Shown here piece by piece: positions 15,328 to 61,558 of a stretch of 64,000 nt of DNA. The DNA is from Candidatus Saccharimonadota bacterium (GTDB lineage: Bacteria > Patescibacteriota > Saccharimonadia > Saccharimonadales > UBA10212): NCBI GenBank assembly GCA_016187175.1, contig JACPKG010000022.1, forward strand, positions 11,989-75,988, given 5' to 3'. The position numbers and the translations under genes were made by a program. How positions within the stretch are numbered: position 1 is the stretch's first letter; each line of letters begins with the position of its first letter. The notes below the pieces were generated by a model, which saw only the letters and a list, made by a program, of their open reading frames with translations, was not told where the DNA came from and did no database searches.

Positions 15328-15376
15328 TAGATTATAGACGTTTGATGCTTGAGTTTCGAGTGTATAAATTACAAAG
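15328..15376 (-). repeat. 49-bp promoter cassette, copy 1 (upstream of dnaX)
   Basis: 46/49 identical to 19904..19952. It contains TATAAT (15331..15336) 7 nt before the dnaX GTG and overlaps the last 2 codons and stop of orf170. Confidence 0.8.
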
Positions 15377-17133: not shown

Positions 17134-17263
17134 TAAAACTCCTTTATACAAAAAATCCTTGGCCTAAAAATACCAAAGATCTATTACAAGCTAGTAGTTT
17201 GTAACCTCGGCGACATTATTAATCCGCCTCAGGCGGACGTCGCTGTCTTTGGCAACTAGCAAT

Positions 17264-17292
17264 AATCTAGCATATCTGCGGGGCGATGGCAA
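17264..17292 (-). promoter_or_regulatory. candidate sigma70-type promoter of rplJ-rplL (TTGCCA-17-TAGATT), followed by a ~125-nt leader
   Basis: Minus sense reads TTGCCAtcgccccgcagatatgcTAGATT. The leader contains the hairpin CCGCC-TGA-GGCGG and may be an L10-leader analogue. Confidence 0.4.
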
Positions 17293-19903: not shown

Positions 19904-19952
19904 TAGATTATAGACGTTCGATGCTCGAGCTTCGAGTGTATAAATTACAAAG
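19904..19952 (-). repeat. 49-bp promoter cassette, copy 2 (upstream of dcd)
   Basis: 46/49 identical to 15328..15376; TATAAT at 19907..19912 lies 7 nt before the dcd ATG. Confidence 0.8.
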
Positions 19953-20959: not shown

Positions 20960-21385
20960 CTACTCAATCTCTACGCCCATGCTACGAGCGGTGCCGGCAA
21001 CCATTTTTTTAACAGCGTCAATATCCGGGGTGTTCATATCTGCCGCCTTAACTTGGGCAATCTCAGTTAGCTGTGAATCGCTTAATTTCTTTTCGAGTTT
21101 AGTTTTATTCGGCTCACCTGAACCCTTCTCTAGCTTCAAAGCCGACAGGATAAGTTCGTCAGTAGGCGTCCCAACAACCCGCCAATCCATTGTTCGGTCA
21201 TCGTAAATTCTGATGTGAACAGTTAAATTCTGGCCCATGCGGTCCTTGGTCTGTTCATTAAAGGGATTAATAAAATCCATCATGTTTACGCCGTACTGAC
21301 CTAGGGTTGAGCCTACCGGTGGTCCAGCGCTGGCCTGTCCGCCGCGGAGCTTCATCTTTAGTGTTGCCTTAACTTCTTTTGCCAT
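20960..21385 (-). CDS. rplK: 50S ribosomal protein uL11
   Basis: Canonical uL11. The ATG at 21385 is preferred (GGAGG 5 nt upstream); the track start 21388 is an adjacent TTG. Confidence 0.95.
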   Translation of the reverse strand: MAKEVKATLKMKLRGGQASAGPPVGSTLGQYGVNMMDFINPFNEQTKDRMGQNLTVHIRIYDDRTMDWRVVGTPTDELILSALKLEKGSGEPNKTKLEKKLSDSQLTEIAQVKAADMNTPDIDAVKKMVAGTARSMGVEIE

Positions 21386-21388
21386 CAA

Positions 21389-21535
21389 AACCTCCTTCAG
21401 TCGGTATAGTGAACAGTTGCCCGTTACCTGTTGTCTGTGGGTTATCGGTTATCAGTGACCAATTGGTAAATACTAAATGATAATTTATCGGTAATTGATA
21501 ATTGTAAATTGATAATCGGAGTGATTTTATCACGA
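21389..21535 (-). repeat. ~150-nt intergenic element X (nusG-rplK spacer), homologous to 35137..35288
   Basis: Alignable over its whole length with element Y (roughly 70% by eye), including CAATTGGTCACTG and GGCAACTGTT. It has a stop-proximal hairpin GTGAT-AAA-ATCAC. Confidence 0.7.
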
Positions 21536-22078
21536 CTAGACCCTCTTTACCTGTAGGCCGTCTAGCTCCACTGGGGTTTCGCGGCCAAACATATTAACCA
21601 ATACTTTAAGTTTACCCTTTTGGACGTCAATCTCGTTAATCGCGCCGTCAAAGCCCTTAAACGGACCATCAACTATATTGACTACTTCTCCGACCCGATA
21701 GTCAAATTTATGTTTGGGCTCTTCTCGACCCATGCGTTTCATGATTTTATTAATTTCGTCTTGCGATAATGGTGTTGGCTCGGTGCCTGTACCAACAAAA
21801 CCAGTGACGTTTGGGGTGTTGCGCACTATATACCAGGCATCTTCAGAAAGCTTCATTTCAACCAACACATAGCCTTGAAAGATGCGTTTCTCGACGATCT
21901 TACGCTTGCCATTTTTGATCTCAATCATTTTTTCCTTGGGCACTAAGACCTGAAAAATCTTGTCGCCCATGTCCAAAGAATCTGCCCGTTGACGGATACT
22001 CTCGGCCACCTTTTCTTCGTACCCACTATAGGTGTGAATAGCGTACCAATGCTTGGTCGAGTCGTATCGCTTAGCCAT
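21536..22078 (-). CDS. nusG: transcription termination/antitermination factor NusG
   Basis: NGN plus KOW domains (GEVVNIVDGPFKGFDG). The ATG at 22078 is preferred over the adjacent TTG at 22081. Confidence 0.95.
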   Translation of the reverse strand: MAKRYDSTKHWYAIHTYSGYEEKVAESIRQRADSLDMGDKIFQVLVPKEKMIEIKNGKRKIVEKRIFQGYVLVEMKLSEDAWYIVRNTPNVTGFVGTGTEPTPLSQDEINKIMKRMGREEPKHKFDYRVGEVVNIVDGPFKGFDGAINEIDVQKGKLKVLVNMFGRETPVELDGLQVKRV

Positions 22079-31166: not shown

Positions 31167-31202
31167 GAGGTCCGACCTTTGCTTTTTCCTAGGTCGAACC
31201 TC
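31167..31202 (+). repeat. GAGGTCCGACC palindromic element, short (core-deleted) copy C
   Basis: GAGGTCCGACCTttgctttttcctAGGTCGAACCTC; lies 13 nt 3' of the rpsI stop. Confidence 0.65.
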
Positions 31203-31214
31203 AGGATAAAAAGG

Positions 31215-34749: not shown

Positions 34750-35136
34750 TTATGTTTTGGCCGCTACTTTCTTAGCTGTTCCGCCAACAGTTACCTTTTT
34801 GCCTCGTTTGGTGCGGGCGTTAGTACGGGTTCGCTGACCTCTAACTGGTAAGTTCGCTTTATGGCGTAGCCCACGGTAAGCATTGATATCCTTGAGACGT
34901 TTAATATTACTGGTCACTATACGTTGCAGTTCGCCTTCGGTTGTAAAATCACTGGTAATAGTTTCTTGGAGACGCGAAAGTTCAGCATCTGTTAGATCCT
35001 TGACTCTTAGGGTCGGCTCAATTTTAATCGCCGTCAAAATCTTAGAACTAGTACTCGGCCCAATCCCGTAGATATAAGTCAGGGCTACACGCACCTGTTT
35101 ATTATCCGGAATGTTAACTCCAGCAATCCTAGCCAC
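34750..35136 (-). CDS. rpsM: 30S ribosomal protein uS13
   Basis: Canonical uS13 (MARIAGVNIP); GTG start with SD AAGGAGG. Confidence 0.95.
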   Translation of the reverse strand: MARIAGVNIPDNKQVRVALTYIYGIGPSTSSKILTAIKIEPTLRVKDLTDAELSRLQETITSDFTTEGELQRIVTSNIKRLKDINAYRGLRHKANLPVRGQRTRTNARTKRGKKVTVGGTAKKVAAKT

Positions 35137-35288
35137 TAAACGCCTCCTTGTGTCGGCTCTGTTAACAGTTGCCTATTGCCGATTAGCTGTGAGTTATCTG
35201 TTACCAGTGACCAATTGATAAATGGAAAATGGTAATTTATAGGAAACGGTAAATTGATAACTGAGAATTGGAGCAATTTCATTGCGAC
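35137..35288 (-). repeat. ~150-nt intergenic element Y (rpmJ-rpsM spacer), homologous to 21389..21535
   Basis: Shares blocks TTATCAATTTAC, CAATTGGTCACTG and GGCAACTGTT with element X. The stop-proximal hairpin GCAAT-GAA-ATTGC shows compensatory changes relative to X. Confidence 0.7.
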
Positions 35289-35405: not shown

Positions 35406-35513
35406 CCCGTTAGAACCTCACCCTTAGCTTGCGATTATCTTCAAACGCTGGCTGCCCAAAACGACTCCAACGCAAAATTAACTTTAGAGTTGCAGGCTGA
35501 GGTCTAACGGGAT
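35404..35513 (-). promoter_or_regulatory. long-range inverted repeat in the infA-rpmJ spacer that can sequester the rpmJ start codon
   Basis: In mRNA sense, AUCCCGUUAGACCUCA (35513..35498) is complementary to UGAGGUUCUAACGGGAU (35420..35404). The second arm includes the first bases of the rpmJ AUG. Confidence 0.4.
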
Positions 35514-35602
35514 TCATCCCAAAGCTCATTCTGATAACATTTGCACGCATTACCATGCGGATCATCACTCCTTTAGCGTGGTGACACACTGCTTCATTAA
35601 TT

Positions 35603-38830: not shown

Positions 38831-39370
38831 TTAAGTCTCCTTACTGCTCTTACCGCTTTTACGGATAACTCGTTCATGTTCGTACTTAATACCTTTACCT
38901 TTATAGGGTTCGGGTTTTTTAAGCGCCCGGATTTCGGCGGCTACTTGACCTACTTGCTGCTTATCAATACCGGCAACGGTTATAGTGTTTTGTTCCACAA
39001 ACACCTGTACGCCAGCTGGTACTTTATACACTACATCATGCGAAAATCCAAGATTGAATTTTAGATCAGAGCCTTGAGCCTCTACGCGGTAACCCACACC
39101 GTGAATCTCTAACCTACGCTCGAATCCACGGCTGACACCAATAACCATATTATTAATAAGCGACCGCATAAGGCCATGATTGGAGCGTACGCTCCGCAGA
39201 TCGTTTTTTCGTTCCACTATCACTTGGTTATTATTAACAGATACCCTGATTCCGGGCATCGTAAACTGAGAAAGCAAGCCTTTTGGTCCACTAACGTTAA
39301 TTTTATTGTTATCAACAGCAACTGATACACCGCTAGGCAGATCAATTGGTAGTTTGCCTATACGACTCAT
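38831..39370 (-). CDS. rplF: 50S ribosomal protein uL6
   Basis: Canonical uL6 (MSRIGKLPI). Confidence 0.95.
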   Translation of the reverse strand: MSRIGKLPIDLPSGVSVAVDNNKINVSGPKGLLSQFTMPGIRVSVNNNQVIVERKNDLRSVRSNHGLMRSLINNMVIGVSRGFERRLEIHGVGYRVEAQGSDLKFNLGFSHDVVYKVPAGVQVFVEQNTITVAGIDKQQVGQVAAEIRALKKPEPYKGKGIKYEHERVIRKSGKSSKET

Positions 39371-39488
39371 TAGACGCTTCCCCTGGTCGCTCCGTTAGCA
39401 ATTAGCCATTGACCACTTACCCTACATTTACCATTAACCATTAACCATTGATCACGGATAACAGGTAACGGGAATGGCGTAGTCATGA
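39371..39488 (+). repeat. rpsH-rplF spacer containing a partial, inverted copy (Z) of the X/Y element
   Basis: In mRNA sense, CCCGTTACCTGTTATCCGTGATCAATGGTTAAT matches the antisense strand of X (CCCGTTACCTGTTGTC...CAGTGACCAATTGGTAAAT). It also has a CCATTAA tandem and the 12-nt palindrome TAGTCATGACTA at the rpsH stop. Confidence 0.5.
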
Positions 39489-44130: not shown

Positions 44131-44239
44131 CTCTTCGCTCCTTCGTCGTTCGGTAACAAGTAACAAACAATAAGTAACAAGTTATATTTGATGAAATTAT
44201 GCAGCAGTCCTTGTTGCATGTTACATGTTGCCTGTTGCT

Positions 44240-44260
44240 TAAAAATGCTTTGCATTTTTA
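44240..44260. repeat. AT-rich stop-codon palindrome TAAAAATGC-n3-GCATTTTTA (rplB stop)
   Basis: 9-bp perfect inverted repeat that includes the rplB TAA. The same arms occur at 45496..45516. Confidence 0.65.
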
Positions 44261-45417: not shown

Positions 45418-45495
45418 CAGCTCTCTCCTTTCGCTGTAACAGGTAGCTAGTAATAAGTAACAAGCTATGTTGCCCGTTGCGTTTTACATGTTGCT

Positions 45496-45516
45496 TAAAA
45501 ATGCTACGCATTTTTA
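45496..45516. repeat. AT-rich stop-codon palindrome TAAAAATGC-n3-GCATTTTTA (rplD stop)
   Basis: Arms identical to 44240..44260. The rplD TAG lies in the loop, and the flanking AGCAACATGTAA is also shared. Confidence 0.65.
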
Positions 45517-46843: not shown

Positions 46844-46972
46844 TTCGCCCCTTCAAATAGTTATTGATAGTTAATACTACTGTCATATTTGACTATAAAT
46901 ACACATTAGGATAAGTCTGCATTTAGGTGGCAACCCAAAGCAGGACCCAGCTCCAAATGCTGTATCCATAAC

Positions 46973-47002
46973 AGATTACCACAAATAGCTGACAAGTGTC
47001 AA
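46973..47002 (-). promoter_or_regulatory. candidate promoter for rplC and downstream genes: TTGACA-18-TGgTAATCT (extended -10)
   Basis: Minus sense reads TTGACActtgtcagctatttgTGgTAATCT, about 130 nt upstream of rplC. The leader contains the hairpin GCATTTGG...CCTAAATGC. Confidence 0.45.
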
Positions 47003-47506
47003 TCCGCTGTAAAAATCACTCCAGTCGCAAAAATACCGAACGCGACCCCACCGTGAATAGCTGATTGTCAAAAATAAGTTTGGTCTTGGCACTCCTCGTA
47101 ATTCAGCCACTGGCTAATTTACTCGTCAAACAGCCAATGCCAGCCAAGCTCATTTATTTATTGACAACATCTAATCAGGGCTCGGCAGATGTTCGGATAT
47201 TTTGCGACTCTCGTTCAACAAAATACTTGACTAGTTAAGGATCTATATGCTCTTCTGGTCACAAGGCTAATCAGTGAGTACTCAAGGTAAATAAATCCTG
47301 GGTAAAACATAACTCAAGGTTAACAAGCGAGCCCTATCTTTCTTCTGGGCACCGGAGACAACATGAGTAGATGTTGTTTATAAAGAGGCGTACTTGGTCA
47401 CTAAAGCATGTTCGACGAAGCAAAGTTGCCAGTGGCAACTTTGTGAGGAGTTCTTTAGCGAGCCTGTTTTAAACAACAGATACATCAAGTTGGTCGACGC
47501 GTCCGG

Positions 47507-47555
47507 AAAAAGATAGGGCGAGCGACCCCTCACATTTTGATTTCGGCGCTTGCCC
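47507..47555 (-). terminator. possible terminator after rpsJ
   Basis: Minus sense reads GGGCAAGCG-loop-CGCTCGCCC (8/9 pairs), followed by TATCTTTTT. The loop is large (~22 nt), so this call is weak. Confidence 0.3.
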
Positions 47556-47632
47556 CGCACTAAAACCTGAGCGGAACAGTCTGCAATCAGATTGTGGAGC
47601 TTCAAGTTTTAGTACTGGGGTCGCAGCCGTGT

Positions 47633-53244: not shown

Positions 53245-53307
53245 CGGACGCTCCTTGCAGTCGCTTAAAATTCAAATACCAAACATCAAGCATCAGATCA
53301 CGCTTAA

Positions 53308-53387
53308 GAGGTCCGACCTGGTAAAAAGATAGGTAAAATCTAGTGATTTTGCCTAAAATCTCTTTGCTTTTTACAAGGTCGGACCTC
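53308..53387 (+). repeat. GAGGTCCGACC palindromic element, copy A (80 bp, rpsL-rpsG spacer)
   Basis: 21-nt arms GAGGTCCGACCTGGTAAAAAG / CTTTTTACAAGGTCGGACCTC. The core GTAAAATCTAGTGATTTTGC is shared with copy B. Confidence 0.8.
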
Positions 53388-53447
53388 CCGCAAAGAAAGC
53401 TGCTTGAAGTTTGAAATTTGAAGTTTGAAATTTGAGTATGGGACATC

Positions 53448-61469: not shown

Positions 61470-61551
61470 GAGGTCCGACCTTGTAAAAAGATGTGTAAAA
61501 TCTGGTGATTTTGCAAAAAAATCACTCTTGCTTTTTGCAAGGTCGGACCTC
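61470..61551 (+). repeat. GAGGTCCGACC palindromic element, copy B (82 bp, clpP-rpoB spacer)
   Basis: 21-nt arms GAGGTCCGACCTTGTAAAAAG / CTTTTTGCAAGGTCGGACCTC; inner hairpin GTGATTTT-n5-AAAATCAC; starts 8 nt after the clpP stop. Confidence 0.8.
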
Positions 61552-61558
61552 CCAAGAA

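Follow-up and report, generated by a model that had tools for sequence, protein, structure and literature searches.

Modular palindromic repeats, probably translated, at ribosomal-protein operon junctions of Saccharimonadales

Repeats that sit between co-transcribed genes and leave the coupling of those genes in place are known from the MIRUs of mycobacteria. As two later accounts summarize them, MIRUs (mycobacterial interspersed repetitive units) are 40-100 bp long and lie inside polycistronic operons in gene orientation (Supply et al. 1997, cited in PMC12548453 and PMC3184786); they are inserted at start codons and carry a small open reading frame (ORF) that overlaps the flanking stop and start codons, coupling being kept, and relay-type coupling has already been proposed for them (PMC12548453; PMC3184786). 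The Rickettsia palindromic elements (RPEs), ~100-150 bp long, belong to a host-dependent bacterium whose genome is reduced (Ogata et al. 2000, summarized in PMC10969869), and in the synthetic bicistronic design cited in PMC12548453 a leader ORF delivers ribosomes and cancels the effects of mRNA structure. Here we analyze a stretch of 64,000 nucleotides (the window) from a Candidatus Saccharimonadota bacterium (contig JACPKG010000022.1, positions 11,989 to 75,988), in which the nusG-rplK, rpmJ-rpsM and rpsH-rplF spacers are filled by three elements, termed X, Y and Z. Most likely, X and Y are paralogous, Z is a relative whose core is inverted, and all three represent a modular palindromic repeat of operon junctions that probably acts as a translated relay cassette.

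Few gene arrays of bacteria are as tightly packed and as conserved as the ribosomal-protein operons, and model bacteria have autoregulatory leaders at the rplK (L1 leader) and rpsM (Alpha_RBS, uS4) positions. The source genome (G+C 46%; Saccharimonadales, that is Saccharibacteria/TM7, Patescibacteria) is represented by the window. All genes discussed lie on its minus strand, in a rpoBC-rpsL-rpsG-fusA-tuf-S10-spc-alpha cluster followed by trpS and other genes, and then by secE-nusG-rplKA and rplJL. Relatives were collected by means of protein anchors (trpS in species-representative genomes, S13 in metagenomes, and look-ups of TrpS homologues), and the statistics on expanded spacers cover the window and 170 loci from other genomes, cited below by L numbers. 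A junction was considered expanded when its spacer was at least 50 nt long, and an ORF was considered bridging when it started no more than 8 nt from the end of the upstream stop codon and stopped between -5 and +14 of the downstream start.

Three related elements and the reading frame within them

Element X (21386..21535, 150 nt, minus strand) makes up the entire nusG-rplK spacer and belongs to a repeat family designated 'MKLLQ/VIKSL'; an earlier note on this DNA, made from the sequence alone, had placed its boundary at 21389. Element Y (35137..35288, 152 nt, minus strand) makes up the entire rpmJ-rpsM spacer. Together they form the longest direct repeat of the window (154 nt, 113/154 matches, 73% ungapped), close to the identity of roughly 70% over the full length that the note had estimated by eye, and all the shared blocks listed there are present. 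The score of their local alignment, 103 compared with 16.9 ± 2.7 (maximum 29) in 1000 dinucleotide shuffles, lies about 32 standard deviations out and well above the shuffle maximum, a comparison that had been set beforehand as a test of the homology. The 3' block CGAC..AAGGAGG is indeed shared but is not specific to X and Y, GCGACYGRAGGRAG being a general ribosome-binding context before many genes of this genome and of its relatives. X is 100% identical across six independent assemblies of the species, one of which ends inside it (133 of 147 nt), and the idea that X is an assembly artefact was rejected on this basis.

Element Z (39371..39488, 118 nt, minus strand), the entire rpsH-rplF spacer, has a 'MTTSF'-type 5' module and a palindromic core that is inverted relative to X and Y. 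Under the same shuffling, its reverse complement aligns with X over positions 11-95 (~85 nt; score 47 vs 15.9 ± 2.5) and with Y (41 vs 15.5 ± 2.3); the inverted copy of about 45 nt noticed earlier is therefore real and longer than claimed. In sense, Z gives no alignment with X (score 14) and a weak one with Y that is limited to the 3' ribosome-binding block (23 vs 14.7 ± 2.2, maximum 25). A profile of the X/Y family matches Z better on the opposite strand (E = 1e-5) than on the same one (5e-3), and with this profile X and Y match their own reverse complements (E = 1e-7 and 4e-7). An orthologous copy of Z is present in L007 (80% over 85 nt). The genes assigned earlier to either side of the three spacers were all correct.

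The elements are built of four parts. First, a short hairpin bearing a start codon lies 0-5 nt past the upstream stop codon. Second, two decayed, mutually complementary arms consist of 7-9-nt stutters. Third, a 3' module carries a strong Shine-Dalgarno sequence. Finally, a stop codon overlaps the downstream start or follows it after a few bases (TAATG, TAGTG, TGATG). Examples of the 5' hairpin are ATGAC-NNN-GTCAT, GCAAT-GAA-ATTGC and AAAATGC-AAA-GCATTTT, with TCC usually following.

Coordinates confirm that X and Y both start directly past the upstream stop codon. The 5' hairpin of X, GTGAT-AAA-ATCAC (21521..21533, minus strand), begins 2 nt past the nusG stop codon (TAG, 21536-21538), contains the GTG start of the mini-ORF (21531-21533) and is followed by CTCC (21518-21521). 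This mini-ORF of 54 codons (VIKSLRLSIYNYQLPINYHLVFTNWSLITDNPQTTGNGQLFTIPTEGGFDGKRS and a stop; 21369..21533, minus strand), the sole stop-free frame of six, ends 14 nt inside rplK because X is without one base near its 3' end that is present in other family members. The 3' module of X supplies the rplK Shine-Dalgarno sequence GGAGG (21391..21395, minus strand; rplK ATG at 21383-21385). In Y, the hairpin GCAAT-GAA-ATTGC (35273..35285, minus strand) is followed by TCC (35270-35272); the 16-nt string that they form recurs in L135 (twice) and L143, and the hairpin alone in L174. The Y mini-ORF of 48 codons (MKLLQFSVINLPFPINYHFPFINWSLVTDNSQLIGNRQLLTEPTQGGV and a stop; 35136..35282, minus strand) starts at an ATG within the hairpin (35280-35282), and its stop codon TAG (35136-35138) overlaps the GTG start of rpsM (35134-35136) as TAGTG, the rpsM Shine-Dalgarno sequence GGAGG (35143..35147, minus strand) lying within the 3' module. 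The Z mini-ORF of 38 codons (MTTPFPLPVIRDQWLMVNGKCRVSGQWLIANGATRGSV and a stop; 39370..39486, minus strand) has its ATG inside the hairpin ATGAC-TAC-GCCAT (39474-39486), and its stop codon TAA overlaps the rplF ATG as TAATG.

The earlier note had missed that every copy contains a stop-free sense frame coupled to both neighboring genes. In each of X, Y and Z, a single frame out of six is stop-free, always a sense frame, and one such frame is also found in nearly all stutter spacers of the window; the promoter-like spacers fabD-tuf and L1-dcd, and those upstream of rpoB and downstream of S9, are without it. Among 92 expanded spacers at normally tight junctions, a stop-free frame is present in 84 in sense compared with 26 in antisense. 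A bridging ORF was found in 72/84 unique spacers, compared with 3.5 ± 1.7 in shuffles (maximum 9 in 200) and 2 in the reverse-complement control, and in 46 of the 55 independent sequence clusters. Mini-ORF starts lie mainly at offsets -4 (ATGA), -1 (TAATG), +1, +2 and +3 (62/86), the same distribution as that of gene starts at tight junctions, and the start of the mini-ORF takes the position that the downstream gene's own start has at empty junctions. The stops fall at -2, +1, +4 or +5 in 63/86 cases, 35 of these 86 being at -2 with a 1-nt overlap (TAATG/TAGTG/TGATG). The frame of bridging ORFs differs from that of the downstream gene, and GTG serves as downstream start at 12/85 expanded junctions compared with 19/764 tight ones.

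Such frames could also encode functional small proteins, for example ribosome-associated ones, the likeness of X and Y then being that of a duplicated small gene. Strong maintenance of the frames, their translational coupling, crude pN/pS values below 1 (0.35-0.77 in family comparisons), a few homologues called as 49-62-aa proteins in other assemblies, and ordinary-looking non-repetitive inserts in L167 (70 aa), L056, L087 and L163 are all in keeping with that explanation, which we nevertheless regard as improbable. The peptide sequences follow from the palindromic stutters, the hairpin module and the Shine-Dalgarno module; many unrelated families (the 55 clusters) have the architecture alone in common; the inverted core of Z yields an unrelated peptide; and presence is sporadic even among close relatives. 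Differences within families are spread almost evenly over the codon positions (those between X and Y are distributed 10/11/19, the codon changes being synonymous in 8 cases and nonsynonymous in 24, which is not decisive for coding), and pN is biased downward since the alignments were made on peptides. Seven mini-ORF peptides had no match in Pfam and the Y peptide had no word-sharing homologue, on which grounds a coding gene of a known family was rejected. The X/Y profile gave only 7 matches among 1.84 billion representatives, and the two small ones that were looked up both lie at stop/start junctions of ribosomal-protein genes. Given the even codon-position differences, the lack of Pfam matches and the few profile matches, selection seems to act mainly on the open frame and the end modules, and the peptides look weakly constrained.

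Relatives also contain non-repetitive ORFs of 60-120 codons (L167 18808-19006; L051 14273-14527; L171 19787-20073; L056 673-886; and junctions of L087 and L163) at junctions such as nusG-rplK, rplK-rplA, S8-L6, L2-S19 and L5-S14. Their starts and stops are coupled, with no match in Pfam, and they could be either genuine small genes or elements old enough for their repeats to have decayed.

Folding of the elements and comparison with leader RNAs

The 5' hairpins of X and Y differ by compensatory changes in 5-bp stems, as the earlier note had observed. Among 12 related elements, which come from six genomes, this first hairpin has its helix paired in 93% of cells and two-sided changes at four of the five pairs, a value reached by 0/500 shuffles, several of the 12 sequences having been found by a pattern that requires pairing. 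Covariation is limited to this first hairpin. Folded in mRNA sense, X, Y and Z show no excess stability over shuffles (z from -0.09 to -1.46); across tests, z ranges from -0.09 to +0.26 for X and from -1.3 to -2.4 for Y. For X (-33.1 vs -20.6 kcal/mol in sense) and Y (-36.7 vs -28.4 kcal/mol in sense) antisense folding is the more stable, whereas for Z sense folding is, and four family members together give only a weak consensus fold (-13.6 kcal/mol). The 84 unique expanded spacers have a median z of -1.6, with 39% below -2, and sense and antisense folding energies show no asymmetry over this set (p = 0.23); the palindrome therefore looks like a property of the DNA. Strand-specific selection on the RNA through G-U pairs, hinted at by eye in relatives, was rejected, since the two energies do not differ over the 84 spacers.

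These folds bear on the explanation that the elements are intercistronic hairpins that act at the RNA level, as sites for double-strand-specific RNases, as mRNA stabilizers or as attenuators tuning ratios, the frame being secondary. That many expanded spacers outfold their shuffles fits this explanation, as does the recurrence of a start-codon-holding 5' hairpin across different sequences. Close to the upstream stop codon, 52/84 spacers have a perfect hairpin of 5 bp or longer (a count without shuffle control), which contains the start codon in the main families; co-transcribed Correia and ERIC repeats are moreover cut by RNases in other bacteria (PMC10969869). It is nonetheless unlikely, given that folding energy is not strand-asymmetric, that X (z = +0.3) and several other window elements are unstructured in sense, and that frame-specific stop avoidance and stop/start overlaps would be left unexplained.

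The strongest folding of the data set (z -6.2) is that of the rpsL-rpsG spacer (53245-53447, 203 nt). Its one stop-free sense frame is a 69-codon mini-ORF with its ATG 1 nt past the rpsL stop codon; it ends 5 nt inside rpsG and remains open despite a nested hairpin repeat, GAGGTCCGACC..GGTCGGACCTC (53303-53389). This long hairpin repeat, GAGGTCCGACCTTGTAAAAAGC ... CTTTTTACAAGGTCGGACCTC, occurs three times (53303-53389, 61470-61556 and about 31179-31204), two copies being in spacers without any open frame, one upstream of rpoB and the other downstream of rpsI, and it looks like a separate REP- or terminator-like family.

The earlier note had also raised the possibility of a shared regulatory RNA and had pointed to the Rfam ribosomal-protein leader models for comparison. 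At gathering thresholds, Rfam returned only five tRNA matches and an L10 leader in the window, and no model reaches threshold at X, Y or Z. A permissive scan of X (E up to 10) gave chance snoRNA matches only (best E = 3.6). In Y, an Alpha_RBS (RF00140) match at 35104-35210 remains below threshold (35.5 bits vs a gathering score of 38) and spans the 3' half of Y and the rpsM start, most matched columns being in the rpsM coding start. As a control, the relative L171, with a 2-nt junction and no spacer, still scores 14.1 bits, so that part of Y's score comes from the rpsM coding start. The L10 leader lies upstream of rplJ (17141-17270; 50.7 bits vs a gathering score of 44); it is the only ribosomal-protein leader above threshold, and this genome thus has at least one classical autoregulatory leader.

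That X and Y are a cis-regulatory leader RNA common to rplK and rpsM, such as an autoregulatory protein-binding site, is hardly credible in view of these results. Compensatory changes do keep the first hairpin paired, the Alpha_RBS match of Y is near threshold, and leaders do exist at both junctions in model bacteria. However, most relatives have no spacers there, the junctions being 2-9 nt long; elements of the same class occupy at least 10 other junctions of the window, many of them without a known autoregulator; X has nothing beyond the chance snoRNA matches; the Alpha_RBS score of Y comes largely from the rpsM coding start, and the 10-bp stem of this match is not kept in X when compared base by base. 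The sense folds, no stabler than shuffles and surpassed by the antisense, and the weak consensus fold point the same way.

A shared promoter was likewise discarded, X containing one weak 9-of-12 promoter-like site (21508-21480) and Y none, and no terminator-like sites were found in X and Y. A reading of the GATAAC/TTATC motifs as DnaA boxes was dropped, the single exact TTATCCACA in the window being at chance level. Elsewhere in the window, a 49-nt repeat (94% identical; 15328-15376 and 19904-19952) lies upstream of two unrelated genes, with a TATAAT at the end of each copy, 7 nt from the start codon, which suggests a duplicated promoter driving leaderless mRNAs.

Filled and empty junctions, families and spread

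The junctions occupied by these elements are normally tight. Across relatives, rpmJ-rpsM (L36-S13) has a median length of 2 nt over 134 loci, of which 13 are expanded, most others measuring 2-5 nt; S11-S4 has a median of 2 nt over 140 loci with 9 expanded, and S8-L6 (rpsH-rplF) a median of 15 nt over 39 loci with 11 expanded, lengths of 2-19 nt being usual. The medians are 1 nt for RpoA-L17 and 0 nt for L13-S9, and the expanded share at these five junctions is 7-28%. Of the five relatives in which the nusG-rplK junction was readable, three (L010 and L171/L172) have one of 6-9 nt. The presence at orthologous positions in relatives that would be expected of a conserved leader is thus mostly lacking.

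At least one expanded junction occurs in 31/122 loci (window included), and the window itself has 12 among its 31 junctions. Besides X, Y and Z, spacers of 55-200 nt with stutter repeats are found there at S12-S7, rpoC-S12, L4-L23, L2-S19, L22-S3, S3-L16, L5-S14, S14-S8, S5-L15, S11-S4 and secE-nusG. Overall, the inserts replace junctions of normally 0-3 nt by 60-240 nt, and the set differs from genome to genome: L169 has them at L36-S13, S11-S4, S5-L15, RpoA-L17 and L13-S9, L171 at S14-S8, L18-S5, S11-S4, RpoA-L17 and secE-nusG, and L167 is free of repeat-type inserts of this kind. The elements are also absent from the sampled oral genomes of the Nanosynbacter type. Among relatives, including close ones, a site filled in one genome can be set directly against its empty counterpart in another. 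The class is a sporadic, modular repeat at normally tight stop/start junctions, confined to a subset of Saccharimonadales and found mostly in ribosomal-protein operons, which are tightly packed and co-transcribed.

Members of the X/Y family ("MKLLQLSIINYQ...") are present at L36-S13 in the window, L135 and L007, at S11-S4 in L135, at L5-S14 in L143 and L174, at L24-L5 in L173 and at nusG-rplK in the window, and a related 3' half occurs at a holB junction in L171 and L169. Other mini-ORF families recur, namely "MTTSFPL...ANGATGRSV" (which includes Z), "MLRIKKLVISNQKL...", "...REKSSQS...RDEKNRKVCL", "MIHCIH..." and "MQSIFKQ...". Paralogues within a genome are 94% (L135), 98% (L010), 86-89% (L007) or 76% (X/Y) identical, and a copy often resembles another copy of its own genome more than it does those occupying the corresponding junction in other genomes. 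With filled and empty sites, paralogues 76-98% identical and a core in both orientations, the suspicion of a repeat family in ribosomal-protein operon spacers, voiced in the earlier note, is supported. Matches to the 5'-module patterns are in gene sense in 20/20 non-chance cases (21/22 of all) and begin no more than 7 nt before or 5 nt after an upstream stop codon, mostly 2-5 nt after, and a 42-nt insertion in L174 keeps the mini-ORF frame.

Copies could have spread by transposition or by recombination from junction to junction. When filled and empty sites are compared, the original spacer of 2-19 nt appears replaced rather than split. Neither end module, the 5' hairpin or the 3' Shine-Dalgarno block, is an inverted copy of the other, and only a 6-bp end-to-end helix is predicted; X contains an internal inverted repeat at 21442-21483. 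The S13-anchored metagenome scan yielded no relative closer than 77%, and the nearest TrpS homologue outside the source species is 76% identical, so that recent insertion events could not be dated.

The elements could alternatively have grown in place through replication slippage and hairpin-templated repair, gene conversion accounting for the likeness of X and Y without any mobility. Arms made of short imperfect tandem units would suit such a process, as would the microhomology shared by junction flanks (gene ends AGG..TAA, starts ATGGCNAR). It would also account for the results on mobility itself: no flanking direct repeat, that is, no target-site duplication, was seen between filled and empty sites, and no transposase turned up for the elements in the 64-kb window, where no search was aimed at transposases. 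Yet an identical 5' module is found in genomes whose S13 is only 73-77% identical, and at different junctions (L36-S13, S11-S4, L5-S14 and NusG-L11), and full-length homologues lie at four junctions in three genomes. The same end modules would not arise repeatedly by growth in place, which makes this explanation very unlikely.

Several other spacers deserve mention. The rplB-rpsS (44131-44257) and rplD-rplW (45418-45503) spacers, 88% identical over 83 nt, have an AAAATGC-NNN-GCATTTT hairpin around the stop/start and homologous mini-ORFs (MQSIFKQ.., MRSIFKQ..), and make up a further pair of paralogues of this element class within the window. In L010, the S5-L15 (180 nt) and L17-L13 (177 nt) spacers are 97.7% identical, fold with z of about -4.7 and are without a stop-free frame; this repeat appears different, possibly a conventional MITE-like repeat in the same operons. 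The infA-rpmJ spacer (35406-35602) holds a 197-nt insert with a 48-codon ORF (MVMRANVIRMSF...) that starts exactly at the rpmJ start position of L007, with the same AAGGAG..GATGATCCGC context upstream. Its first codons resemble the rpmJ start (MKVRASV) and it ends 4 nt before the present rpmJ ATG, which suggests an insertion just past the original start codon with duplication of the gene start. Finally, the rpsJ-rplC gap of the S10 operon (46844-47632, ~790 nt) contains no convincing gene, a 75-codon ORF at 47378-47605 looking spurious. A motif of this gap, ..CACAATCTGATTGCAGACTG.. (peptide LHNLIADCSAQ), recurs in both orientations in junction elements of L143 and in L007, and the gap may be a stack of degenerate elements.

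A putative translational relay and its analogues

The reading that we favor is that of a translated relay cassette of selfish or neutral origin, which would be neither a regulator nor a protein with a function of its own. A ribosome ending the upstream gene would reinitiate at the start of the mini-ORF, which would take over from the ancestral downstream start both its position and the Shine-Dalgarno-like sequence ahead of it. It would then read through the insert, melt its structure, terminate on the next start codon and reinitiate there. Coupling, equimolar output and the output of the operon would be left nearly unchanged, and with coupling and equimolar output preserved the insert would be tolerated.

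Several points weigh against this reading. Translation of the mini-ORFs is suggested by sequence statistics, and mobility of the elements by their distribution, with neither the target-site duplication nor the transposase mentioned above to go with it. X, with its GTG start and a stop 14 nt into rplK that does not overlap the start, is an imperfect example. The pN/pS values below 1 leave room for some selection on the peptides. Gene boundaries in relatives are tblastn matches and not the product of a gene caller, and the counts are not fully independent because family members share ancestry, a point addressed by the count over 55 clusters. Finally, the Shine-Dalgarno sequence is on average 52% paired in predicted folds. 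Since it is paired only about half the time, structure-gated coupling is not supported, and its sequestration by the CUCC that follows the first hairpin was dropped for the same reason.

We tentatively suggest, as a real possibility, that these elements represent new self-propagating translational relay cassettes in some Saccharimonadales, members of the candidate phyla radiation, that colonize essential stoichiometric operons without breaking their coupling. Bringing along their own start, open frame, Shine-Dalgarno sequence and stop/start overlap, such cassettes could settle at junctions and leave coupling intact. They may also provide a pool of constantly translated random peptides and so a source of new small genes. 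Inserts of 60-200 nt split up to 12/31 junctions in one genome, and the statistics indicate that the inserts have been kept readable for ribosomes; if true, the relay mechanism would explain how selfish repeats can live inside essential operons. The elements also amount to dozens of natural tests of termination-reinitiation with varied spacings, start codons and hairpins. For annotation purposes, such spacers should be called neither ribosomal-protein leaders nor hypothetical proteins, and their pattern of presence and absence could serve as a fine-scale marker among Saccharimonadales genomes. Full-text literature searches revealed no description of such elements in Saccharibacteria or Patescibacteria, and to our knowledge coupled intercistronic repeats are otherwise known only from mycobacterial MIRUs.

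Comparison with described systems helps to delimit the class. Ribosomal-protein leaders (L1/rplK; Alpha_RBS, RF00140) occupy the same two positions in model bacteria but are structured, protein-binding and conserved at orthologous sites, which X and Y are not. Correia, ERIC, RUP and BOX repeats are likewise small, non-autonomous intergenic palindromes, often co-transcribed and hairpin-forming, some with small ORFs (PMC10969869). However, they are defined by terminal inverted repeats and target-site duplications, can insert either way round and lack a nucleotide-exact stop/start placement. In the elements described here no target-site duplication was seen and no clear terminal inverted repeat was identified. 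The synthetic bicistronic design (cited in PMC12548453) has a leader ORF whose stop overlaps the start of the gene and which contains a Shine-Dalgarno sequence, as do our elements; it is engineered and without repeat or palindrome. RPEs (PMC10969869) also come in several families, encode an open frame and are tolerated through translation; unlike the elements described here, which are separate intergenic mini-cistrons with a start, stop and Shine-Dalgarno sequence of their own, they are inserted in frame inside host genes, where they join the host protein.

Finally, MIRUs share the most with the present elements. Both lie within operons, in gene sense and at the downstream start codon (20/20 non-chance 5'-module matches here), both carry a small ORF abutting or overlapping the flanking stop and start codons (72/84 spacers here), and both have filled and empty sites among relatives and internal inverted repeats. 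The host phylum is nonetheless unrelated and no sequence relationship is evident, no formal comparison with the MIRU consensus having been made, so that membership is not claimed. The elements described here are 60-240 nt long with AT-rich 7-9-nt stutters forming a decayed palindrome, and no tetranucleotide direct repeats were seen in them. They occur one per junction, whereas MIRUs form variable tandem arrays, and they are concentrated in ribosomal-protein and transcription/translation operons. Here, the types of 5' hairpin recombine with cores and 3' modules, and cores are found in either orientation. The elements would thus constitute a second, independent case of a MIRU-like phenomenon, in an unrelated, genome-reduced phylum; MIRUs are their closest known counterpart, from which the palindromic, modular build in that phylum sets them apart.

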